64,000 bases of DNA from an uncultured delta proteobacterium (GTDB lineage Bacteria > Myxococcota > Myxococcia > Myxococcales > Myxococcaceae): positions 32,001-96,000 of the forward strand of contig CAVYSY010000001.1 in assembly GCA_963771175.1 (NCBI GenBank), given 5' to 3'. The notes beneath the pieces were generated by a model. The model had not been told where the DNA came from. It was given only the letters and a program-made list of their open reading frames with translations, and did not search any database. Of the stretch, positions 7,867 through 61,912 are shown piece after piece (the stretch's first letter is position 1; the number at the start of each line of letters is the position of its first letter). The position numbers and the translations under genes were made by a program.

Positions 7867-9510
7867 GTGGAATCTGATTCAACGGCCCAACCGGCCGATG
7901 AGGATGACTCATCTTCCTGGAAGAGTGACCTCGTCTCTGGCTTTCTTGTCTTCCTCATCGCCCTGCCACTGTGTCTGGGCATCTCCATGGCCAGTGGCTT
8001 CCCGCCGCTGGCTGGCATCCTCACCGCTGTCATCGGCGGTCTTCTCTCCACCTGGTTGGGTAGTGCCCGCCTGACCATCAAGGGTCCCGCGGCGGGCCTC
8101 ATCGTCATCGCGCTCGGGGCCGTGCAGGAGCTGGGCGGCGGTGACATGCAGCTGGGCTACCGGCGCGCTCTCGCCACCATCGCCGTGGCCGCCGTGTTCC
8201 AGATTGTCTTCGCCCTCGTCCGCGCCGGCTCCCTCGGGGACTTCTTCCCCTCCTGTGTAGTGCAGGGAATGCTCGCCGCCATCGGCGTCATCATCTTCGC
8301 GAAGCAGGCCCATTCGCTGCTCGGTGTCACCCCGACCGGCAGCAGCTCCCTGGCTCTGCTCGAGGAGATTCCCCACAGCCTCACGAAGCTCAATCCATCC
8401 ATTGCCCTCATCGGCGTGCTGAGCCTCGTCATCCTCTTCGGCCACCCGTATCTCAAGGGCCGCCTGGCATGGCTCAAGAAGGTGCCCGCGCCGGTGCTGG
8501 TGCTGCTCGTGGCCGTGTCGCTGGGGTTCGCCTTCGAGCTCGACCAGGTCCACACGTACACCCTCGGCTTGATCGGGGCGTCCTACGCGATCGGGCCGAA
8601 CTTCCTCGTCAACCTGCCGGACAACTTCCTGTCCGTCATCACCTTCCCGGACTTCTCCGCCGTCTTCTCGGCCGCCTCGCTCAAGTACATCGCGATGTTC
8701 GCCATCGTGGGTAGCATCGAGTCCTTGTTGATAACGAAGGCCGTCGACTCGCTGGACCCGGAGAAGCGCCGCTCGGACCTGAACAAGGACCTGCTGGCCA
8801 CGGGCGTGGGCAACCTCGCGGCGGGTCTGCTCGGCGGTCTGCCGATGATCTCGGAGATCGTCCGCAGCTCGGCCAGCATCGGCTACGGAGCGAGGAGCCG
8901 GCTCTCCAACTTCTTTCACGGCCTGTTCCTGCTGCTCTTCGTGGCCTTCGCCCCAGCGCTCATCCAGCGCATTCCGCTGGCGGCGCTGGCGGCCATGCTC
9001 ATCTACACGGGGGTCCGACTGGCCTCGCCGTCGGCCTTCGTGCAGACGTTCCGCATTGGCCCCGAGCAGCTCTTCATCTTCAGTGTCACCCTCGTCACCA
9101 CCCTGGCCACGGACCTGCTGGTGGGGGTCATCACGGGCGTGGTGGTGAAGATGGGGGTGCACCTCGTCAACGGCGCGACGATGCGGGGCCTCTTCCGCCC
9201 CTTCGTCGTCGAGCAGGAACTGGGCGGCAAGGTGGTGCTACGTGTGGGCCATGCGGCCGTCTTCAGCAACTATCTCGGCCTGAAGAAGCGGCTCTCGCGT
9301 TTTTCCCATGCGCGTGAGGTGGTCATCGACCTGTCCAGGGCCCGGCTGGTGGACCACACGGTGATGGAGCGGCTGCATCAGCTCCAGGAAGAGTTCGAGC
9401 AGGAGCATCGGCGACTGGAACTGCGCGGGCTCGACCGACACCAGCGTCTCTCCCTGCATCCCCTGGCGGCATGCAAGCGATCGGGCCCCCGGTTCCGGGC
9501 CTCCTCGTAG
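7867..9510 (+). CDS. SulP/SLC26 family anion (bicarbonate/sulfate) transporter with STAS-like C-terminus
   Basis: DLVSGFLVFLIALPLCLGISMASG, GPAAGL, GGLPMISEIVRSS, IPLAALAA, VVIDLS...VDHT; GGAGG RBS before GTG. Confidence 0.92.
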   Translation: MESDSTAQPADEDDSSSWKSDLVSGFLVFLIALPLCLGISMASGFPPLAGILTAVIGGLLSTWLGSARLTIKGPAAGLIVIALGAVQELGGGDMQLGYRRALATIAVAAVFQIVFALVRAGSLGDFFPSCVVQGMLAAIGVIIFAKQAHSLLGVTPTGSSSLALLEEIPHSLTKLNPSIALIGVLSLVILFGHPYLKGRLAWLKKVPAPVLVLLVAVSLGFAFELDQVHTYTLGLIGASYAIGPNFLVNLPDNFLSVITFPDFSAVFSAASLKYIAMFAIVGSIESLLITKAVDSLDPEKRRSDLNKDLLATGVGNLAAGLLGGLPMISEIVRSSASIGYGARSRLSNFFHGLFLLLFVAFAPALIQRIPLAALAAMLIYTGVRLASPSAFVQTFRIGPEQLFIFSVTLVTTLATDLLVGVITGVVVKMGVHLVNGATMRGLFRPFVVEQELGGKVVLRVGHAAVFSNYLGLKKRLSRFSHAREVVIDLSRARLVDHTVMERLHQLQEEFEQEHRRLELRGLDRHQRLSLHPLAACKRSGPRFRASS

Positions 9511-9550
9511 CAGGCTCCTTCAAGCCCTCTCCTGGTCGGCCCCCCTGTGT

Positions 9551-11296
9551 ATGCGGGCGTATTGCGCGTGCGCCTTGGGGCGGCCCCTCACACCTTTCCA
9601 ACGGGTGACTGCCTTGCTTCCTCTCCTCGAAATCGCCGTCGTCCTGGTCTTGCTGTTGCCATTGGGGCTGGCCCGGCTCTTTGGCCTGGAGCTCCTGGGG
9701 GCTGACTGGCCCCTGGGCGCGGGACTCGTCGTGCAGGCCGTGGTGGGCCTGCTTCTTCTCACCTACCTGAGAGGCGCCCTGGCTCCACGCGAGCGCGGGA
9801 GGGCGCTGGGGGGCTACCTCCTTGCCTTCGCGGGCCTGGGGGGCGCGTACCTCGCGGGCAAGAGCCTGTGGCTGCCCGTGTGCTGGGAGTTGTCCACGCT
9901 GGGCTTCGTGCTGGCGTTCTTCTCCGGAGGCCATCGCGCGAGCACGGTGCGCGGCGTGGTGGTGCTCTTCGCGGCCAGCGGCGTGTCCATGCTGCTGCTC
10001 GCCGTGTGGGTCTTCCTCCCCGAGGGCCCCATGGGCCTCACGTGCCTGGCGCTCGGGCTGATGCTGAAGGGCGCCTTCTTCGGGCTCCACTTCTGGTACG
10101 CCGAGGTACACGCGGGTGCGCCCAACCATGTCTCCGCGGCGCTGAGTGGCGCGGCGGTGAACCTTCCCGTGCTGCTCTTCGCGCGCTACGCGGCCGGGTC
10201 CGCCGAGCTGGCGCACCATGCTTCGTGGCTGGTGCCCCTGGCGGGTGTGGGCGTGTTCCTCGGGGGCCTGGTGGCCTTCTTCAAGGGGGACGTGCGGCGG
10301 GCGCTGGCGCACAGCACGGTGGAGAACGCCAACGTGCTGTGGCTGTGCCTGCTGACCTCCGTGTTCTTCGCGAGCGAGGGGCAGGCGGAGCTGGCCGCGG
10401 GCTTCCGCTGGGTGTTCTACGGGGTGCTCGTCCACCACGCCCTCTCCAAGACGTTCCAGTTCCTCGGGCTGGGCTACCTCTACGAGCTGGCGGGCAGCAG
10501 CGCGGTGGAGCTGTGCAAGGGCGCGGGGCGCGGCTCGGGGCTGGGCGCGGGCCTGCTGGTGGCGGGCGCGGCGAGCTTCGCGGCCATGCCGGGCACGGTA
10601 GGCTTCCTCGCCGAGACCTCACTGCTGTGGCTGCTGGGTCGTGCCTTCGGGCTGCCGCTGGCGCAGGCTCTTCCGGTGCTGGCGGGGCTCGTCTTCATGC
10701 TCATCGGCCTGGTGCTGGGGGGCTCGGCCCACCTGCGCCTCTACCTGCCCATGGTCCTCTCGGTGCCGGCCCAGGGGGTGGCGGCCGACGTGCACCCGGC
10801 GCCAGCGGGCGTGCGGTACGCGCTGGGCGCGGGAGCGGCGGCCCTCTTCGGCCTGCCAGTGGGGGTGCTGGTGTTCCTGGGCATGCCCGCGTCGGAGGCC
10901 GTGCCGCCAGTGCTGCGCGGGTGGTTGCTGCCGGCCGCGGCGACCTCCACCGTCATCGCCTTGATCTGGGCCGCGCTGGCCCGCTGGCGCTTCGTCCACC
11001 GCGTGCGCGCGCGCGTGCTGTGGGACTGCGGCAATCGCTACCGGGGGCCGGAGTTGTCCGTGCCCTCCAACGTCTTCTCCGCCCCGCTGGAGGCGTCGCT
11101 GGCCCGCTACTTCCTTCGCGAGGACGGGCGCGCGCGGCTGGACCAGAAGCTGCACTCCGCCCTGGAGCGGGTGCTGAACCTGGGGCGCTACTGGATTGGC
11201 GCCGTGGAGTCCGGTGCCGTCTCCACCTACCTGGCCTTCTCCACCCTGGTGCTGATGCTCACCGCCGGCATCCTGGTGCTGTTCAACCTCCTGTGA
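9551..11296 (+). CDS. hyfB: Ehr/Hyf proton-translocating membrane subunit (HyfB/NuoL-like); start uncertain
   Basis: WELS, LKGAFFGLHFWYAEVHAGAPNHVSAALSG, LAHSTVEN, HHALSK, MPGTVGF..E, WDCG. Confidence 0.8.
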   Translation: MRAYCACALGRPLTPFQRVTALLPLLEIAVVLVLLLPLGLARLFGLELLGADWPLGAGLVVQAVVGLLLLTYLRGALAPRERGRALGGYLLAFAGLGGAYLAGKSLWLPVCWELSTLGFVLAFFSGGHRASTVRGVVVLFAASGVSMLLLAVWVFLPEGPMGLTCLALGLMLKGAFFGLHFWYAEVHAGAPNHVSAALSGAAVNLPVLLFARYAAGSAELAHHASWLVPLAGVGVFLGGLVAFFKGDVRRALAHSTVENANVLWLCLLTSVFFASEGQAELAAGFRWVFYGVLVHHALSKTFQFLGLGYLYELAGSSAVELCKGAGRGSGLGAGLLVAGAASFAAMPGTVGFLAETSLLWLLGRAFGLPLAQALPVLAGLVFMLIGLVLGGSAHLRLYLPMVLSVPAQGVAADVHPAPAGVRYALGAGAAALFGLPVGVLVFLGMPASEAVPPVLRGWLLPAAATSTVIALIWAALARWRFVHRVRARVLWDCGNRYRGPELSVPSNVFSAPLEASLARYFLREDGRARLDQKLHSALERVLNLGRYWIGAVESGAVSTYLAFSTLVLMLTAGILVLFNLL

Positions 11297-11309
11297 GGCT
11301 GCTCTTTCC

Positions 11310-12191
11310 ATGAATGCGCTCGTCGTACTCATCCCGGCCTTCGTGGCCGTCCCGCTGCTCGGTGGCGGCGTGGTGCGCAAGGTGCGCGCCCGCGCGCAGG
11401 GTCGCCGGGGTCCTCCGGTGCTGCAGAACCTCTTCGACCTGATGCGGCTGCTGAGGAAGCAGCCGGTGGACGGCCCGTACTCGGGCTTCTTCGCCGAGGT
11501 GTCCCCGGCGCTGGCGCTGCTGGCGGCGGTGGGCACCTGGTCCGTGGTGCTCTTCGGCTGGGCGCCGCCGCTGCTGGCCGTCTTCCTGCTGGTGCTGCAG
11601 TACGTGGCCACGCTCGCCTTCGCGATGGAGACGGGCACCAGCTTCGGTGGCCTGGGCGCCAGTCGCGAGGTGCTGCTGTCGGTGCTGGCCAAGCCCTGCC
11701 TGCTGTTGGCGATGATGCTGGCGGAGGCGCGGCTGCCCCGCATGAGCCTGGTGGAGGGCGCGCTGCTGGAGGCGCTGATGCTGGGGGCCGTCGGAGTGGC
11801 GCTGCTGGCGGAGATGGCGCGTCCGCCCTTCGATGACCCGCGCACGCACCTGGAGCTGACCATGGTGCACGAGGCCATGCTGCTGGAGGCCTCGGGCCGA
11901 AGCCTGGGCCTCTTCGAGCTGGCCAACCAGGTGAAGCTGGCGGCGCTGCTGTGTCTGCCCGTGCGCATCCTGCTGCGCCACGGCCAGGCCCTCGCCGGCG
12001 TGGCCCTGCCCGGCGTGCTGGAGGGCGTGCTCCTGGTGGGGTTGACGCTGGGGGCCGCGGCGATGCTCGGTTACTGGGAGGCGGTGAGCGTGCGCCGCAA
12101 GTGGACGTGGAACGCGGAGCTCCTGGGCCTGTCGCTGCTGCTGCTGGTGCTGGCCGCTTCGCTCCTCACCTTCTACCCGGAGGCCGTATGA
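11310..12191 (+). CDS. hyfC: Ehr/Hyf membrane subunit (HyfC/HycD, NuoH-like)
   Basis: KVRARAQGRRGPP, FGGLGASRE, R.PFDDP.THLELTMVHEAMLLEASG. Confidence 0.88.
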   Translation: MNALVVLIPAFVAVPLLGGGVVRKVRARAQGRRGPPVLQNLFDLMRLLRKQPVDGPYSGFFAEVSPALALLAAVGTWSVVLFGWAPPLLAVFLLVLQYVATLAFAMETGTSFGGLGASREVLLSVLAKPCLLLAMMLAEARLPRMSLVEGALLEALMLGAVGVALLAEMARPPFDDPRTHLELTMVHEAMLLEASGRSLGLFELANQVKLAALLCLPVRILLRHGQALAGVALPGVLEGVLLVGLTLGAAAMLGYWEAVSVRRKWTWNAELLGLSLLLLVLAASLLTFYPEAV

Positions 12192-12814
12192 GCGCCGACT
12201 TCGCGCACCTGCTCATCCTGTTGGTGGGCGTCATCATCCTGTTGGAGAACCGGCTGCGGCGCGTGGTGCTGCTGTCCGGCGTGCAGGGAGCCCTGCTGCT
12301 CATCCCCCTGCTGTTGAACCGCTCCGGCGAGCTGCACGGGGCCCACCTCTGGGGGCTGGTGGCCCTGATCATCGTCTTCAAGGCGGTGTTCACGCCCACC
12401 GTGCTGATGTGGTCCCTGCGGCGGCTGGGCCTGCCGGAGAACACCGGGCCCCGTCTGGGCTTCCTGCCCACGCTGCTGATGGTGCTCGGGGGCCTCGCCG
12501 CGGCGGGGGCGGCGCTGGCGCGCGTGGACGTCGCCTCGGTGGGCCTGAGCCGGCCGGCACTCGTCTACACGCTGCTGGTCATCTTCGTGGGGGCGCTCAC
12601 CTTCATCGTCCGGACGATGTGGGTGCCGCTCATCGTGGGCTTCGTCGTTTTCGAGAATGGCATCTTCCTGTTGACCCTGCAGCTCGGGACGAACCTGCCG
12701 CTGGGCATCGAGCTGGGGGCCTTCGTGGACACCCTCTTGGTGCTGGTGGCGGCGGCAACGCTGCAGGTCTGGTCCCGTACGCACCCTGGCGCCGAGGCGC
12801 CCCGGCTGCCCTGA
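12188..12814 (+). CDS. hyfE: Ehr/Hyf small membrane subunit (HyfE-like)
   Basis: ATGA overlap with the upstream stop; QG..L, K...P, GFVVFENG, P...ELG...D. Confidence 0.8.
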   Translation: MSADFAHLLILLVGVIILLENRLRRVVLLSGVQGALLLIPLLLNRSGELHGAHLWGLVALIIVFKAVFTPTVLMWSLRRLGLPENTGPRLGFLPTLLMVLGGLAAAGAALARVDVASVGLSRPALVYTLLVIFVGALTFIVRTMWVPLIVGFVVFENGIFLLTLQLGTNLPLGIELGAFVDTLLVLVAAATLQVWSRTHPGAEAPRLP

Positions 12815-12825
12815 GGAACCCCGCA

Positions 12826-14028
12826 ATGGAATTCATCGGCTTCCTGGTGCTGAGCGCCATCGTCTTCCTGGCCCTCCTGGTCAACTTCGTCTTCGGCTCC
12901 TCGCGCACGCACCGCGGACTGGGGCTGTGGCTGCTGCTCTTCCTGCTGCTGGGCGGCGCCATCGCCACCTCGTGGTTCCTGACGGACTCCATCCTGCGGT
13001 GGGTGGTCATCGAGCTGAGCACGCTGCTGGGCGCGCTGCTCATCTCCATGACGCGCTCGCGGCGCGCGCTGGACGTGGCGTGGAAGTTCCTGCTCATCAA
13101 CTCCTTCGGACTGGGCATCGCCTTCCTGGGGCTCATCGTCCTGCTCTTCGCCAGCGGCACGCCGGACAGCCGGCAGGTCTTCCTGCTGCCGCTGGGCACT
13201 CCGCGCTCGGTGGTGCTGATGGAGGTGGGGCTGTGGCTCGCGGTGTTCGGCTACTCGGCCAAGCTGGGCCTCTTTCCCAACCACTTCTGGGTGGGGGATA
13301 CCTACGCGGAGGCGCCCAACCAGGTGGCGGCGCTGCTGGCGGCCTTCATCCCGGTGGCCGTCTGCGTCCCCCTGCGCAACCTGTTGGACCTGGACCGGGC
13401 GCTGCACGTGGGGCGCATCAGCGCGTCCGACGGCCTGCTGCTGCTGGGCGTGCTCACCATGCTCTACAGCGTGTGGACGCTGTACCAGACGCACGACCTG
13501 GACCGGGTGGGCGCGCTGGTGGGCCTCTTCCACAGCGGCGCGCTGGCGGTGGTGCTGTGGTTCCGCCCGGATGACCGCATCTTCTGGTTCCTCATGGCCA
13601 GCAACGTGGTGATGAAGGCGGTGCTCTTCACCAGCCTGGGAGCGCTGCGCTTCCACGTGAGGGACCACCGGCTGGAGGGACTGGGCGCGGTCCCCCGGAG
13701 CGCGCTGTGGCTCTTCCTGCTGGCGCTGGCGTGTGCCTTCGTGCTGCCGCTGTCACCGGTGTTCGTCTCGGACATGCTGCTGGTGCGCGCGGGCTCGCTG
13801 GGCGGGCGGCTGTGGGCGCTGGCGGTACCGGCGCTGGGCCTGGCCTTCTTCGCGGTGGGCCTGGGCAAGGTGCTGCCCATGACTGCGCTGGGGCAGCTCG
13901 ATGTCTCCGGAGAGGGCGCCGCCGCCTTCCGGACGCGCCTGGGCCTGAGCGTGGCCCTGCTGGCCCTCACGGTGGCGCTCGGCGTCTGGGGCCTCATCCA
14001 TTTCCCGATTGGAGGTTTTGGCCTGTGA
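12826..14028 (+). CDS. hyfF: Ehr/Hyf antiporter-like subunit (HyfF-like)
   Basis: WVVIE.STL, AWKFLLI, GYSAKLGLFPNHFWVGDTYAEAP. Confidence 0.82.
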   Translation: MEFIGFLVLSAIVFLALLVNFVFGSSRTHRGLGLWLLLFLLLGGAIATSWFLTDSILRWVVIELSTLLGALLISMTRSRRALDVAWKFLLINSFGLGIAFLGLIVLLFASGTPDSRQVFLLPLGTPRSVVLMEVGLWLAVFGYSAKLGLFPNHFWVGDTYAEAPNQVAALLAAFIPVAVCVPLRNLLDLDRALHVGRISASDGLLLLGVLTMLYSVWTLYQTHDLDRVGALVGLFHSGALAVVLWFRPDDRIFWFLMASNVVMKAVLFTSLGALRFHVRDHRLEGLGAVPRSALWLFLLALACAFVLPLSPVFVSDMLLVRAGSLGGRLWALAVPALGLAFFAVGLGKVLPMTALGQLDVSGEGAAAFRTRLGLSVALLALTVALGVWGLIHFPIGGFGL

Positions 14029-15411
14029 GTGATTCTGCCTCCCTCATTACGGGTGTCTTCCGCCGCGAGCATGGCGGCGCATGGCACCTCTATTCGCTGA
14101 CGGACCGGGCGCTATCCTCGGAGGTGGTGTCCGCCACGGACCCCGAGGCGCTCGTGTCCGAGCGCCACATCCCCACATGGCTGTGGCGGCACTCGGTGGG
14201 GGTGCCCCACGGGCCCGAGGACCTGCGGACCCCCTCGGAGTCCCAGGGCCCGCCGGGCAATCTGGAGTACGCGGGACTCCAGGTGTCGGTGAGCCCGCGG
14301 GGCTATTCGCACGCGGTGGGCCCCATCCACGCGGGCGTCATCGAGCCGGGTCACTTCCGCTTCTCGTTGGAGGGCGAGGTCATCCAGTCGCTGAACATCC
14401 GCCTGGGCTTCCAGCACCGCGGGGTGCGGCGGCTGATGGAGGGCCAGCCTCCGCTGCGGGTGATGCCGCTGGCCGAGTGCATCAGCGGTGACAGCACGGT
14501 GGCCTATGGCCTCGCCTTCAGCCGGCTGTACGAGGAGGCGGCGGGGTGGGGCGTGTCGCCCGAGGTGGAGCTGCTGCGTCTGGTGATGTTGGAGCTGGAG
14601 CGGGTGGCCATCCATGTGGGGGACATCGGCGCCATGGCGGGGGATATCGGCTTCTACCCGCTGCTCGGCCTGTGCAGCACGGACCGGGGCGTGGCGCTGG
14701 GCGCGCTGGAGACGCTCACCGGCTCGCGCTTCGGGCGTGGAGCGCTCTGGCCGGGCGAGGTGCGGTTGAGCCGCAAGCTGACGCGGGAGGATCTCCAGCC
14801 GACGGCGCGGCGGCTGCTGGACATGTGGGCCCGGGTGGAGGACCAGGCGCAGCGGGCGCTCGATGACTCCACGGTCCGCGAGCGCCTGCAGGGCTGCGGC
14901 CGGCTCACGCGGGAGCAGGTGCTGGAGAATGGCTTCGTGGGCATGGCCGCGCGGTGCACGGGCCTGAAGCGGGACCTGCGCCTCGCCGAGCCGCTGTACC
15001 GGGACGGCGCGGGAGCGTCGTTGGAGCTGGCGCCAGACGCCGCGCTGATGCAGGGGGATGCGTACTCGCGCTTCGCGCTCCGGGTGGAGGAGGTGCGCCA
15101 CAGCGTGGAGTGGCTGGCGGCGGTGCTGCCCCGGCTGGACGTGACGTGTGGCGGCCAGGGCCCGTCTGCGCGTCATGGAGCGGCTCGACTGGAAGCCGGG
15201 CGTGTATGCGAAGGCGGTGGAGGGCTGGCGCGGCCCGGTGCTGGTGGCGCTGGACCTCGATGGGGAGGGGCGCGTGCGGCAGAGCTACCTGCGCGATCCG
15301 TCCGTCCTCAACTGGCATGCGTTGGAGTTGGTGGTGCGCTCGGAGCTCATCGGCGACTTCCCGCTCAACAACAAGTCCTTCAACCTCAGCTATGCGGGGG
15401 TGGATCTCTGA
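14025..15411 (+). CDS. Ehr large subunit (HyfG/HycE/NuoD-like) lacking NiFe-binding CxxC motifs; one frameshift near 15150
   Basis: VGPIHAGVIEPGHFRF, HRG, AECISGDS, ELERVAIH. The C-terminus continues in another frame as VEGWRG, RDPS..NW, DFPLNNKSFNLSYAGVDL. Confidence 0.85.
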
Positions 15412-16265
15412 TGTCGATCTTCGAGTGGAAGAACTTCTTCTCCCGGCCGGCCACGCAGGATTACGCGAAGGCCTCGCCGGTGCAGGCGCGGGCTCGCGGG
15501 GTGCCCGTGCCGGTGCGCGATGCGGCGGGCTCGTGCGCGGACTGTGGGGTATGCGAGCGTGTCTGCCCCTCGCGGGCGGTGAAGGTGGAGGGCTCGCGGG
15601 CGCTCGCCTTCGACTATGGCGCGTGCCTGCAGTGCGGGCTGTGCGTGCGGGTCTGTCCGGAGCAGCGGCTGGAGGACTCGGGGCTGACGTACGCCTTCGC
15701 TCTCGAGCGGGACACGCTGAAGGTGACGTTCGACGGCTGCGACTTCGAGCCACGCGCGGAGCCGGTGCCGGAGAACGTGGAGCGCTTCCGGACGCTGACG
15801 GGGGGCCGGGGCCTCAACTACCGCGAGGTGGCGGCGGGCAACAACACGGTGGAGTGCGAGCTCAACGCGAGCTTCAACAACGTGTTCGACAGCGAGTCGC
15901 TGGGCATCCGGAGCGTGGCCTCGCCGAAGCACGCGGACGTGGTGCTGTTCTCGGGGCCGGTGGGGCCGAACATGGTGGGGCCCCTGCGGACGGCCTGGGA
16001 CGTGATGCCGGAGCCGAAGGCGCTGGTGGCCTGTGGCACCGAGGCGGTGAGCGGAGGCCTGTTCCCCATGGGCGAGCGGCCGAAGACACCGGACCTGTTC
16101 ATCGCGGGGGACCCGCCGAGACCGGACACGGTGCTCAACGCGCTGCGCTACCTGATGGGGAGGATGAAGTACTCCTTCCAGCACGCGCTGCGGGACCGGG
16201 TAGCGGAGCTGCGCCAGCCGTCGGGCCTCCCGGCAGGACAGGCACATCGGGGCTCTCGCTCCTGA
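15411..16265 (+). CDS. Fused 2x[4Fe-4S] ferredoxin (HyfH/NuoI-like) + HyfI/NuoB-like small subunit with degenerate cluster ligands
   Basis: CADCGVCERVCP and CLQCGLCVRVCP; ASPKHADVVLFSGPV, PEPK; TGATG overlap with the large-subunit stop. Confidence 0.87.
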   Translation: MSIFEWKNFFSRPATQDYAKASPVQARARGVPVPVRDAAGSCADCGVCERVCPSRAVKVEGSRALAFDYGACLQCGLCVRVCPEQRLEDSGLTYAFALERDTLKVTFDGCDFEPRAEPVPENVERFRTLTGGRGLNYREVAAGNNTVECELNASFNNVFDSESLGIRSVASPKHADVVLFSGPVGPNMVGPLRTAWDVMPEPKALVACGTEAVSGGLFPMGERPKTPDLFIAGDPPRPDTVLNALRYLMGRMKYSFQHALRDRVAELRQPSGLPAGQAHRGSRS

Positions 16266-17978: not shown

Positions 17979-19569
17979 TCAAGGCAGGCTGTAGAGCACC
18001 CCATATGGCGGAGAGATGCTGCTGTCCGCGGGGAGTGACGGCGGGGGCAGACCGCCAACGGTGTCGAGCCAGCCCATCGCACCTTGATCCTCATGCTCGA
18101 GGATGTGGCAGTGCATGATGGTGCGCCCCTCGTAGACGGTGCTCGTGGCGGCGTTCAGATCGAAGCGCACCGAGCAAGCCGACGTCAGCGTGTCGTAGTA
18201 CTCGCCGTTCTCGAAGGAGCCCGAACAGTTCTGCGCCTGGAAGTGGTAGACGTGCAGGTGGAAGGGGTGCTGCGTATTGCCCGAGACGCTCCACTCCTGC
18301 ACCTTGTCGGCGGGCAGCGTGAAGGTCGGGACGTCGTGGTCGAACGCCGTGCCGTTGAGAGTGCGCGCGCCCATGCGGACACTCGTCACGTTCAGTGCGG
18401 AGCTGGGCACACCGCGCAGATCGCGCAGGTAGGCAGGACGGAGCGCCGACCAGGTCGATGCCACTGCTGCCCTGGCTGTACGGGCCGACGGTCGTGTTGC
18501 CGGCCCCGTTCGACGTAGATGTTCGCGATGGTGGTGCCGTTGATGGTGAGGGTCGAGTCGTTGGTGCAGCGCACCGCGAGGTCGGCGCGCGAGGCGCCGG
18601 TGAGGCTGATCGAGCCGGTCGAGAGCACCTTGGGGGCGGTCGTGCGCCACACACCGTCGCGCGCGAGCAGCGCGACCTCGCAGTTGGAGCCGACCCCGAC
18701 GGTCTTCTCCGTCGCGGAGCGATCGGCGAGCAGGACGCGCCAGTGCTGCCACTCGTTCGCGGGAGCGCAGAAGGCGCCCTGCACCAGTCCGTTGACGGTC
18801 CAGGTCGGGCTCAAGCGTGCCGCTCATCAACGTGTCGCCGCCGGTGCCGGCCGCGCCGGGATCGAGATAGGCGATCACGAGCTGGCGCTCGGTCATGGCG
18901 GCGACGTTCGCGGGGATGCCGTCGTTGCCGTCGTCGATGAGCATCTGGCCGAAGGCGCCGCCGGAGACCTGGAGGATAGGTCGAGCCGTGGTGGTGCGCG
19001 TGGTACCAGTAGGTGCCGCCCATGTGGTCGGCCGGGATGTCGTAGACGAAGTCGCCGCCGAAGCCGCCCTCGAAGGAACGGCTCACGTCGTCGCTGGGAG
19101 ACTCGCCCGAGATGTGCAGCCCGTGGGTGTGCACGTTGCTGACGTTCGGGTCCTTGAACACGTTCATGGCCGAGCTGGCCGGCTGGTACGGCAACCTGTT
19201 GTGGAAGCGCAGCACGTACTTGTTGCCGGGCTGCATCTTGATGGTCGGACCCGGAATCGAGGGGGCGGTGCCGGCCTGCCGGTACGCGCGCGTGGTGAGC
19301 GTCTGGCCACCGATGAGGAACGACGCCGCGCCCATCTCCAGCGTGCCGCTGTAGTAGGCGGTCGGATTGGTGTCCGACGGGGCGTGGTAGGTCCACTGGA
19401 ACTGGGGCGGATCGGTGATCACGTTCGTCGCCGGGCACACGGTGAGTGACCCGGAGCCGCGGCTCGCCAGTCCCTGGCTCTCGTTGTTGCATCCGGTCAG
19501 GCAGAGCGTACCGAGAATCGCGATGGCGCTCGTACGAGCCGCCAGTTCAACCGATGGGCTTCGCTTCAT
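17979..19569 (-). CDS. Multicopper oxidase lipoprotein, several frameshifts
   Basis: Lipobox LTGC; Cu motifs NVHTHGLH, YWYHAHHHG, HPFHLH, HCHILEHED spread over ORFs 18811-19659, 18392-18814 and 17979-18944. Confidence 0.88.
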
Positions 19570-19625
19570 GTTCGTCTCTCTTTGTCTAGAGGCGGTTCGG
19601 TAGGGAAGGAGTTGCCGCGGATCTT

Positions 19626-20153
19626 CTACCAGCAGGGTCCTGGCGTGCCGCTCGGGCATGTGGTCGTCGCGTCTGTCCTCGCTCCGTCCAGGAGCGCGTC
19701 TTTCAGCACGGCGTTCGTCAGCCTGGTGCCTTCGAGGTTGGCGCCGGTCAGGTTGGCGCCGGTCAGGTCGACACTCGTCAAGTTCGCGCCGGCCAGGTCC
19801 GCGCCCGCGAGGCTTGCATGGCTCAGCACCGCCTTGAACAGGTCGGCACCCACGAGGTTGGCACCCGTCAAGTCAGCGTTGCTCAGGTTCGAGCGGCGCA
19901 TGCTCGTGCCGTCCAGGTTCGCACTGACCAGCCGGCATTCTCGAAGGTCGGGGTTCAACTCGAGCCAGTTGCCGGCATCGCACGGCTCGGTCGCAACGTC
20001 TCGCACCCCGGTGTCGTGACCATCATGCTGCCCGGCGTCATCGACAGGGTCGTGCTCATGTGTCGGGTCCCCGAGCTCGCCGGCGGAACCACAGGCCCCC
20101 AGCGCAAGTGCCAGCACGACGACGTACGGATGCACGGGTCTTTTTACGATCAC
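19626..20153 (-). CDS. Pentapeptide-repeat lipoprotein
   Basis: Lipobox LGAC; A(N/D)LxG repeats; ends TTCPSG. Confidence 0.88.
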   Translation of the reverse strand: MIVKRPVHPYVVVLALALGACGSAGELGDPTHEHDPVDDAGQHDGHDTGVRDVATEPCDAGNWLELNPDLRECRLVSANLDGTSMRRSNLSNADLTGANLVGADLFKAVLSHASLAGADLAGANLTSVDLTGANLTGANLEGTRLTNAVLKDALLDGARTDATTTCPSGTPGPCW

Positions 20154-27313: not shown

Positions 27314-29327
<2,014 letters not shown>

Positions 29328-29348
29328 CGGAGTGACAGGGTAGGACCC

Positions 29349-60172: not shown

Positions 60173-61912
60173 CTAGCCCCGGTCGCGGCGCACGGGGACC
60201 TTCTTGCCGCGCAGCGTGGTCTGCCGCAGCGCGGTGATGATCTGATCGGCCATGGACTCGGGCACCTCGACGAGCGAGTGGGTGTCGCCAATCTGGATGG
60301 CGCCGATCCGCTTGCCCTCCACGCCCGCCTCACCGGCGATGGCGCCCACCAGGTCCGCGGGCCGTACCCCCGCGGTCCGGCCCACGCCGATGAACAGCCG
60401 TGCCATCTCGAAGTCCTCCGACGGGCCCGTGCGGCGCTTGGGGCCCCGAGGCTCCGCCGCTCCAGGCCGCTCCCTCATGCTGGGGCGAGCGGCGGCCCGG
60501 ACGTCCTTGCCCGGATGCGCGGGACGCGGGGGCCTCTCCGAGGGCGGGGGCACCAGGGGGATCTCCTCCTCCTCCTCCGCATGGCCCTCCACCTGCGCGT
60601 CGTGGAGCAGCTTCACCCCGGCGGCGGCCACCTCCAACAGGTCGAACTCGGAGGCGAGGCTCTCCACCACGGAGCGGTAGGAGTCGAGCTCGCCCGCCAC
60701 CAGGGCCTCACGCAGGGAGGCACGGACGAGCTCCAGCCGGCGGGCGCGCAGGTCCGCCACGGTGGGCACGGTGGCCACTTCGATCTTCTGGCCGGTGAGC
60801 TTCTCGATGTTGCGCAGCAGCCGGTGCTCGCGGGGCTCGGCGAGGGTGATGGCCACGCCCTCGCGCCCGGCGCGACCGGTGCGGCCGATGCGGTGGACGT
60901 ACGCCTCGGGGGCGTTGGGCACGTCGTAGTTGACGACGTGGGAGAGCTTCTCGATGTCCAGCCCGCGCGCGGCCACGTCCGTGGCGACGAGCAGCTCGAT
61001 GGCGTGGGTCTTGAACTGCTTCAGGACGCGGTCGCGCTGACCCTGGTCCATGCCGCCGTGGAGCGCCTGGGCGCGCCAGCCGCGGCCGTTGAGCGAGACG
61101 GTGAGCTCGTCCACCTCGGTGCGGGTGCGGCAGAAGACGATGGCGGCGGTGGGGGCCTCCACGTCCAGCACGCGCCCGAGCGTGGCGGCCTTGAAGGCAC
61201 GCGGGACGATGTAGGCCGTCTGGCGCACGCGGGGGCCGGTCCCGGGCGCCATCTTCTCCTTGGCGATCGCGCACGTGGACGGGCTCGCTCAGGTGACGCT
61301 CGGCGATGGAGGCGATGCGCGGGGGCAGGGTGGCGGAGAAGAGGGCCGTCTGGCGGTTCTCCGGGGTGGCCTCCAGGAGGGCCTCCAGGTCCTCGGCGAA
61401 GCCCATGTCGAGCATCTCGTCGGCCTCGTCGAGCACCACGGTGCGCACGGAGTCGAGCAGGAGCGACTGGCGCTTGAGGTGGTCGAGCGCGCGTCCCGGG
61501 GTGGCGACGACGACGTCCACGCCGCGCTTGAGGACGCGCAACTGCTGCCCCATGGGCTGGCCGCCGTAGATGGGGAGCACGCTCACGCCCGAGCTTCTGG
61601 CCGTAGCGGTGGATGGCCTCGGCCACCTGCATGGCGAGCTCACGGGTGGGGACGAGCACGAGCGCGGACGCGGAGAACGGCGCGTGCTCGCCGGGGGTGA
61701 TGCGCTGGAGGAGGGGCAGGGAGAAGGCGGCGGTCTTCCCGGTGCCGGTGGCGGCGATGCCGAGCAGGTCCTTGCCCGCGAGCAGCGGGGGGATGGGCGG
61801 CGCGCTGGATGGGAGTGGGTTCCTCGTAGCCGAGCGCGCTGAGCGCCTCCACGAGGGCGGGCTGGAGGCCCAGTTGTTCGAAGGACGGAGGGGCAGCTGG
61901 AATGGTGCTCAC
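60173..61912 (-). CDS. deaD: DEAD-box RNA helicase with DbpA-type C-terminal domain (frameshifted)
   Basis: [44 protein letters not shown]. Confidence 0.9.

Follow-up and report, generated by a model that had tools for sequence, protein, structure and literature searches.

Complexes of the Ehr type, which a paper of 2013 reportedly defined, are widespread across many bacterial phyla. DAB and the cyanobacterial NDH-1MS complex (CupA) are energised CO2-to-HCO3- pumps. For Ehr, the parts available of four published accounts either call the function unknown or propose a complex with formate dehydrogenase (FDH) (PMC6349859, PMC7894505, PMC10284858, bioRxiv 10.1101/2019.12.18.881540). Here we describe a locus in a 64,000-nucleotide stretch of DNA (the window) from an uncultured bacterium of the Myxococcaceae, in which a gene for a SulP-family transporter and the six genes of an Ehr complex stand as seven co-oriented genes on the + strand at positions 7867–16265, as assigned from the open reading frames (ORFs) of the window and from Pfam and NCBIfam profile searches. 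Comparison of sequences and gene neighbourhoods leads us to propose, with a probability of roughly 0.6, that this operon serves the acquisition of inorganic carbon (bicarbonate), SulP acting as the anion carrier and Ehr as a cation-translocating machine for Na+/HCO3- uptake.

The operon resembles the Ehr cluster of Geobacter sulfurreducens (GSU0739-45) in combining NuoL/HyfB-, NuoH-, HyfE- and HyfF-like subunits with a large and a small subunit, the large subunit being devoid of the NiFe cysteines. It differs from mainstream Ehr in falling into a separate clade, in the loss of the four ligands of the proximal [4Fe-4S] cluster and in the bicarbonate-type transporters that flank it. The architecture of the membrane arm is that of Escherichia coli formate hydrogenlyase (HycE/HycG, 7z0s), hydrogenase-4 (Hyf) and the membrane-bound hydrogenase (MBH) of Pyrococcus furiosus (6cfw), but the NiFe ligands, the proximal cluster, the hyp genes and the formate dehydrogenase partner of these systems are absent from the window. 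DAB and NDH-1MS (CupA) couple a complex-I-type proton-channel subunit to carbon uptake, as is proposed here for the window complex, whereas no DabA, CupA or carbonic-anhydrase-like subunit was found in the window operon with Pfam and NCBIfam.

SulP, SbtA and DAB are reviewed together as carbon transporters in the part available of PMC10880623. A further parallel is offered by the cyanobacterial Mnh/Mrp and NhaS3 antiporters that support BicA and SbtA, where a multisubunit antiporter-type complex is encoded or regulated with Na+-dependent HCO3- transporters; the available part of that report places the mnh operon in the regulon of sbtA and bicA and says that it makes the Na+ gradient for HCO3- uptake (PMC10096703). 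A similar role is proposed, in the section available, for Nitrospira marina, in which BicA-like genes lie beside NhaB antiporters (PMC8115632). Ehr differs from Mrp in having NuoH-, NuoD-, NuoB- and NuoI-like subunits; the antiporter-type subunits of the operon were identified by PF00361 only, and no search was aimed at MrpE/F/G. The window SulP is like BicA in its SulP fold with a STAS domain but scores 139 bits against the cut-off of 880 of the BicA equivalog model and lies in a distinct clade.

Bicarbonate-type transporters beside Ehr clusters

A scan of one genome per species gave 80 loci related to the Ehr cluster of the window. The large subunit is matched over nearly its whole length in only five of these, all from Leptospiraceae (40–48% identity), the match in the other loci covering the core only (33–44% identity). 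In a FastTree phylogeny of 105 large subunits, the window groups with the Leptospiraceae-type sequences in a clade of 22 rows with a local support of 100, within which the window is sister to all other rows. The fused small subunit is matched (E ≤ 1e-40) in 97 of 101 sampled genomes of the Leptospiraceae, the family of Leptospira fluminis. Nine genomes of other families of the window's order carry the fused small subunit at 36–43% identity in a syntenic cluster, with no SulP, SbtA or DabA within the fetched flanks. Among 17 genomes of the same genus none has a full-length match to the fused small subunit (0/17), the matches found there being at the level of NuoB. This same-genus search had first suggested that the linkage of sulP to Ehr is unconserved, a view superseded by the wider scans, which found loci in Leptospiraceae, metagenomes and planctomycetes.

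Forty Leptospiraceae loci, hand-picked to spread over the range of identity, were then fetched, and in 30 of the 40 the Ehr cluster adjoins a gene for either a SulP of the window's clade or an SbtA-family protein. SbtA together with a porin stands directly upstream in 14 loci, and in two others the same upstream slot is taken by a SulP of the window's clade with a porin. SulP follows directly downstream in 12 (one of them only 31–37% identical, and one with SbtA next to it) and SbtA in two. Eight of the remaining loci have only a gene for a REC domain and a class III cyclase, and two show none of these arrangements. The porin gene that accompanies sbtA in Leptospira loci is exemplified by L. 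fluminis (L065), where the cluster is directly preceded by a gene of the SbtA family (PF05982, E 7e-111) and one for an alginate-export-type porin, while in a metagenome-assembled genome of the Leptospiraceae (L062) SulP comes directly after it. Two unrelated transporter families thus swap in one position, and the property common to them is Na+-dependent bicarbonate transport.

A metagenome scan with the small subunit of the clade yielded 16 relatives, some of them near-duplicates, 12 of which have a readable downstream flank. A SulP of the window's clade lies directly after the cluster in nine of the 12, and in four of these nine (L142–L145) this one SulP stands between two complete, convergent Ehr clusters of the window's clade (e.g. 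L144:4005-18957). The remaining three (L151, L153, L154; 10813-12045) have a response-regulator plus class III adenylate/guanylate cyclase gene after the small subunit. Among mainstream Ehr loci, that of an Isosphaeraceae planctomycete (L113) continues into a gene for a SulP that carries a PII domain at its C-terminus (PF00543, E 1e-10; L113:9991-11949), a Planctomycetaceae locus (L130) has the order Ehr-DabA-DabB-DabB-SulP, and in L134 DabB-like genes stand at the contig edge before Ehr. We count some nine distinct architectures in three phyla.

Smaller features of these loci also recur. In L142–L145, SulP is separated from the second Ehr cluster by a LysE-type gene. The cyclase gene takes the place of SulP after the small subunit in L217, L219–L224 and L229 as well, and in L233 it is found together with SulP; some bacterial class III cyclases are responsive to bicarbonate or CO2. 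Just ahead of the HyfB-like gene, seven Leptospiraceae-type loci have an ORF of about 95–116 amino acids (aa) without a Pfam match (L062:4682-5008, L063:4775-5089, L066:5228-5509, L144:3562-3891, L151:3734-4081, L152:3750-4079, L148:474-791), and in L156 an ORF of 142 aa takes this position. The only similarity detected among these ORFs is that of L062 to L144 and L145 (66% identity). In the window, the spacer from sulP to the HyfB-like gene is too short to hold an ORF of this kind.

The SulP transporter and its orthologues

The sulP gene (7867–9510, + strand) begins with a GTG codon and encodes a Sulfate_transp domain (PF00916, E 4.8e-56; 190.6 bits, cut-off 23.2) and after it a STAS domain, the architecture of the SulP family, the STAS matches (STAS_2, E 7e-6; STAS) being weak and below their cut-offs. 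The score with the NCBIfam sulP model is likewise far below its cut-off. The best match of solved structure is 6ki1_A (E 1.6e-24), an entry titled 'Low affinity sulfate transporter', which we take to be BicA.

Of the 17 same-genus genomes, 13 have an orthologue with 71–80% identity, as does one genome of the family. Nine orthologue loci were fetched for a comparison of neighbourhoods, and in eight of the nine DabA and two DabB-like genes stand beside SulP (orthologues 71–73% identical). The DabA proteins of these sister loci are of two types (PF10070, E 1e-255 and 1e-189): SulP is colinear with one type in six of the eight DAB loci, and with the second type there is one colinear and one convergent locus. 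A gene for an extracytoplasmic function (ECF) sigma factor lies divergently upstream of SulP-DabA-DabB-DabB in the eight loci (L052–L057, L059, L060) and is missing from the window. The closest orthologue, that of genome G010 (80% identity), stands alone. None of the nine fetched loci contains Ehr genes or the genes that flank the operon in the window; in five sister genomes the 576-aa gene upstream of the operon was not found, and the gene downstream of it is only 37–40% identical.

An IQ-TREE phylogeny of 24 SulP proteins places all DAB- and Ehr-linked SulPs in one clade with a long stem (support 100/99), outside which fall the three other SulP genes of the genome that holds the window. Within this clade the window SulP is nested in its own genus as sister to the SulP of G010. 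As the SulP is thus native to the genus, and the Ehr complex groups with that of the Leptospiraceae, the pairing arose independently in the window lineage. The second SulP of the genome (35% identical to that of the window) is followed by DabA-DabB-DabB on another contig (C51:186006-192400), this DabA being the only one of the genome, and the third, in two pieces, adjoins a beta-carbonic anhydrase (C32:648818-650890). Carbonic anhydrases were screened by Pfam in the window, this genome and a few loci. Three of the four SulP genes of the genome therefore lie beside carbon-related or Ehr genes. The operon of the window gives no match to PF10070 and is not itself a DAB system.

Loss of the hydrogenase and redox sites

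The large subunit (14025–15411, + strand; PF00346, N-terminal part E 1.8e-17, C-terminal part E 6e-5) is of the NuoD/HycE/MbhL kind, its best matches of solved structure being MbhL (6cfw, E 3e-28) and HycE (7z0s, E 4e-21). In the alignment it has S-G-D-S where MbhL and HycE have C-G-I-C, and its C-terminal 88 aa are without any cysteine, so that neither the L1 nor the L2 CxxC pair that binds NiFe is present; the 88-aa piece by itself had no match in the PDB at E 0.01. The last gene (15411–16265, + strand) encodes a NuoI/HycF-like 2x[4Fe-4S] ferredoxin fused to a NuoB/HycG-like domain (PF01058 and Fer4 families), with HycG (7z0s, E 2e-15) as its best match of solved structure. Alignment to this HycG reveals N, V, E and D in place of the four ligands of the proximal cluster. 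The pattern N-x-(E/D)-D occupies these positions in all 61 of 61 window-type small subunits, against CCCC in 64 of 71 mainstream sequences, and in the same clade the large subunit also diverges in its N-terminal part. The invariance of the replacement across the clade indicates that the loss is old, shared and conserved, which speaks for selection and against decay.

The cluster cysteines have been lost elsewhere too. The small subunit of the planctomycete locus L113 independently lost all four (to D, S, D and N), and they are also lost in the mainstream loci L127, L106, L097 and L073, which have no SulP, SbtA or DabA neighbour by tblastn. In the ferredoxin domain, all eight cysteines are kept in the window, L062, L063 and L065, and four of the eight are lost in L064.

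By composition the complex belongs to Ehr: large and small subunits like those of group 4 hydrogenases are combined with NuoH-like and antiporter-like membrane subunits in synteny with 89 homologous loci, the window contains no NiFe maturation genes, and a search of the genome, 81.7% complete, gave no HypD (the control was detected in 4 of 14 genomes). A group 4 [NiFe] hydrogenase is contradicted by the absence of the four NiFe cysteines and of the proximal [4Fe-4S] ligands. Complex I is likewise contradicted, as the N2 ligands are absent, no NuoE/F/G families occur in the operon or the window, and the scores with the Nuo equivalog models are far below their cut-offs. Indeed, the NCBIfam scores of the operon proteins are all far under the curated cut-offs, which marks the operon as a divergent set.

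With the NiFe cysteines and all four proximal Fe-S ligands gone, the complex cannot be a hydrogenase. Because the NiFe site and the proximal Fe-S cluster are both missing, the subclade of the window probably has no redox enzyme at the NuoD/NuoB interface, and the retained eight-cysteine ferredoxin domain may be structural or regulatory.

Charged residues of the membrane arm

Four genes on the + strand encode the membrane arm. The first, for a HyfB/NuoL-like antiporter-type subunit of 581 aa (9551–11296; PF00361, E 1.7e-15; hydrogenase-4 subunit B model, E 8e-13), has K173, H180, E258, H296, K300 and E355 conserved in 7/7 window-type and 3/3 mainstream rows, and E113 in 7/7 and 2/3, respectively. 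In the HyfC/NuoH-like subunit of 293 aa (11310–12191; PF00146, E 1.5e-20) the residues R119, E120, D175, D176, H180, E182, H187 and E188 are conserved in all seven window-type and all ten mainstream rows (7/7 and 10/10). The small HyfE-like subunit of 208 aa (12188–12814; NF008556, hydrogenase 4 membrane subunit, E 1.8e-12) shares K65, E156, E175 and D181 between the window-type and mainstream groups, and E63, K146, H153, H236 and K264 are conserved in the HyfF/NuoN-like antiporter-type subunit of 400 aa (12826–14028; PF00361, E 1.6e-13; hydrogenase membrane subunit and HyfF models, E 1e-21 to 1e-23). Equivalence to the canonical charged residues of antiporters and NuoH was judged from sequence context rather than from a reference alignment. 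The conservation of these antiporter- and NuoH-type residues argues for purifying selection.

Proposed function and alternatives

We propose that SulP is an anion carrier, most likely a Na+-coupled HCO3- transporter of the BicA-like kind, and that the six Ehr genes would build a complex-I/Mrp-like membrane machine whose conserved Lys/Glu/His channels would move H+ and/or Na+ across the membrane. By moving ions in this way, the complex would provide or recycle the ion gradient needed for bicarbonate uptake, or carry off its charge and protons. The factor common to the SulP clade of the window, SbtA and DAB is the ion-gradient-driven supply of bicarbonate to the cytoplasm, and a cation translocator that feeds or balances bicarbonate uptake would be the most economical mechanism. 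We infer HCO3- as the substrate, and likewise the coupling ion, the direction of transport and the joint working of the proteins.

The initial annotation of this DNA had already suggested an energised uptake system for anions or inorganic carbon with no part in H2 metabolism, and had named the conservation of the sulP linkage among close Ehr homologues as one of its tests. The linkage is conserved, with SulP or SbtA at 30 of 40 Leptospiraceae loci and SulP at 9 of 12 metagenome loci, and the gene neighbourhoods support the uptake idea further in that the SulP orthologues lie beside DabA/DabB in eight of nine sister loci. The absence of the NiFe cysteines and the failure to find HypD in the genome agree with the exclusion of H2 metabolism.

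A possible counterpart in Leptospira interrogans has expression data. In the part available of PMC13066512, a porin and six-gene operon (MY479_RS17565-17595) is coordinately repressed in a host dialysis chamber (log2 of about -2.0 to -2.4), is likewise repressed in serum, is upregulated in a perRA perRB mutant, and is labelled 'NADH-linked electron transfer'. Judged from gene order and annotation names alone, this operon would be an Ehr homologue, and its repression in bicarbonate-rich host fluid would fit a role in carbon uptake.

Several findings weigh against the proposed role in bicarbonate acquisition. The link to PerR and the 'NADH-linked' label of the Leptospira operon would fit a redox or stress role instead. 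Since none of the 17 same-genus genomes has the Ehr cluster, SulP works without Ehr there. The SulP of the window reaches only 139.1 bits with the BicA model NF050096 and 168 bits with the DauA model, for which the cut-off is 614, and neither carbonic anhydrase nor carboxylase was found in the window by the Pfam scan. Ten of the 40 Leptospiraceae loci have no transporter neighbour, eight of them having the REC and class III cyclase gene, and close kinship among many of the 30 positive loci means far fewer independent events. By tblastn, neighbours of this kind are confined to L113 and L130, and in part L134, of the 84 mainstream Ehr loci; with two or three of the 84 linked, the association is not general to Ehr complexes and is strong only in the window's subclade and a few planctomycete loci. 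Finally, the large subunit is frameshifted in the assembly's own copy.

A different reading of the same neighbourhoods is that Ehr is itself a vectorial CO2-hydrating machine like NDH-1MS/CupA or DabAB, the chemistry being done in the NuoD/NuoB pocket (N-x-E/D-D) or by another subunit, with SulP handling the bicarbonate. Such a machine would suit the position of Ehr, which takes the place held by DAB beside the SulP orthologues of sister species and is part of one cluster with DabAB-SulP in L130, as well as the change of the former cluster ligands to an invariant polar or acidic set in 61 of 61 sequences and the independent loss of the same cysteines (to D, S, D, N) in the SulP-PII-linked locus L113. 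We nevertheless regard it as unlikely, as the seven window proteins contain no carbonic-anhydrase-like domain at E ≤ 0.01, no His/Cys zinc site was identified in them, L130 keeps its CCCC ligands and has its own DabA, and the cysteine-less mainstream loci L127, L106, L097 and L073 lack a SulP, SbtA or DabA neighbour.

We also think it improbable that Ehr works in respiration or redox balancing (linked to ferredoxin, formate or NADH) and is unrelated to carbon uptake, with the transporters adjacent through a shared response to stress (pH, salt, oxidants). This idea draws on sources available in part, in which an FDH-Ehr complex is proposed (PMC6349859), Ehr of Geobacter is induced by formate (PMC7894505) and the operon of L. 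interrogans is characterised as NADH-linked and PerR-dependent (PMC13066512), and the eight-cysteine ferredoxin domain kept in the window, L062, L063 and L065 accords with it. However, the absence of NiFe and of the four proximal-cluster ligands in 61/61 sequences would leave the electrons of the ferredoxin domain without an onward path, L064 has lost four of the eight ferredoxin cysteines as well, and no FDH or NuoEFG-like gene is found in the window. Shared stress regulation also fails to explain why two unrelated families of bicarbonate transporter swap in one slot.

Chance adjacency in a variable region of the genome, with the Ehr cluster as a decaying acquired element, would agree with the frameshift and lost cofactor sites, with the cluster being present in 0/17 same-genus genomes and with the poor conservation of the flanking genes in five sister genomes, but is highly improbable given that the extra base is absent in 4/4 other runs, that the G+C content at third codon positions (GC3) of 0.85–0.92 is like that of the rest of the window, that the cofactor-site replacements are shared and invariant across the clade and the channel residues conserved, and that the same pairing recurs in other phyla.

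Returning to bicarbonate acquisition, a wider and more tentative proposal, to which we give somewhat less than even odds, is that the Ehr clade devoid of NiFe and the proximal cluster is a third energised machine for inorganic-carbon uptake beside NDH-1MS/Cup and DAB, a complex-I relative stripped of its cofactors, in which the ion channels would serve SulP or SbtA and N-x-E/D-D would be a site for a cation or for CO2/HCO3-. A marker subunit of this clade is matched in 97 of 101 sampled Leptospiraceae genomes, and the cluster was joined independently to a native SulP in the high-GC soil bacterium of the window. The literature search found no paper linking Ehr with SulP and none on Leptospira linking bicarbonate and hydrogenase; of the papers retrieved for Ehr, hydrogenase and carbonic anhydrase, none has these terms in its title or abstract. 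The repeated link to two unrelated families of bicarbonate transporter and to DAB gives Ehr a testable role in inorganic carbon. Were this role confirmed, complex-I-type ion machinery would serve carbon acquisition in heterotrophs in a new way, and an operon of almost all Leptospiraceae, now read as 'NADH-linked electron transfer', would be re-annotated. It would also provide a compact module for the engineering of carbon-concentrating mechanisms.

The locus and its assembly

The seven-gene set recognised in the initial annotation, with its short gaps and overlapping start and stop codons, was recovered at the same positions from Pfam, NCBIfam and the ORFs. The intergenic gaps are 40, 13 and 11 nucleotides (nt), the other three junctions are start/stop overlaps, and GGAGG lies 8 nt ahead of the GTG start of sulP. 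A scan for promoters and terminators gave sites no more numerous in the region than in its shuffles; no terminator-like site was found between sulP and the HyfB-like gene, which carries little weight as the same scan gave fewer sites than its shuffles. The claim that hyp, endopeptidase and formate dehydrogenase genes are absent from the window holds as well, none of these families being found among the 39 other ORFs by the Pfam scan. That the Ehr complex is complete stands in part: all six genes are present, and the large subunit is frameshifted by an extra base.

The large subunit follows the frame of 14025 in its N-terminal part and that of 15145 in its C-terminal part, the one extra base being at 15164/15165. 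This base is absent from the contigs of 4/4 other public runs (from three studies), where the gene is in a single frame, and in the closest homologue, L062, both parts align to a single continuous ORF. The break is either private to the present assembly or an error. As a consequence of the shift, the N-terminal part reads on in frame into the small-subunit gene, giving an ORF of 852 aa (13707–16265). In run X1 a single contig covers 7400–16700 at about 98.7% identity, which establishes that the junction of sulP and Ehr is real and not an assembly chimera.

In runs X2 and X3, two stretches of about 58 nt (joints 9409/9468 and 9504/9564), at the 3' end of sulP and in the spacer between sulP and the HyfB-like gene, are replaced by 4 and 11 other letters. 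These replacements at 9409–9564, whose matching sides are short (24–37 nt), may be strain variation or an artefact. The depth of run X2 is lower over sulP than over the Ehr genes, in contig data that are unsuited to ranking genes by depth. The RNA runs X19 and X20 contain only 0.06–0.09 of the sampled sequence words.

Elsewhere in the window, a multicopper oxidase is split into two overlapping ORFs (17982–19659, - strand), Hsp70 is present only as a C-terminal piece of 175 aa (28816–29340, + strand), and a DEAD-box helicase has its C-terminal domains only (60176–61288, - strand), a fragmentation that suggests further frameshift errors in the assembly. The window lies on contig C1 of a genome of 9.8 Mb in 58 contigs. 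Its G+C content is 69%. The other genes, which by Pfam include Ser/Thr kinases, FHA domains, sigma-54 activators, DUF4388 and MopE motifs, a content that would suit a myxobacterium, are similar in GC3 to those of the operon.

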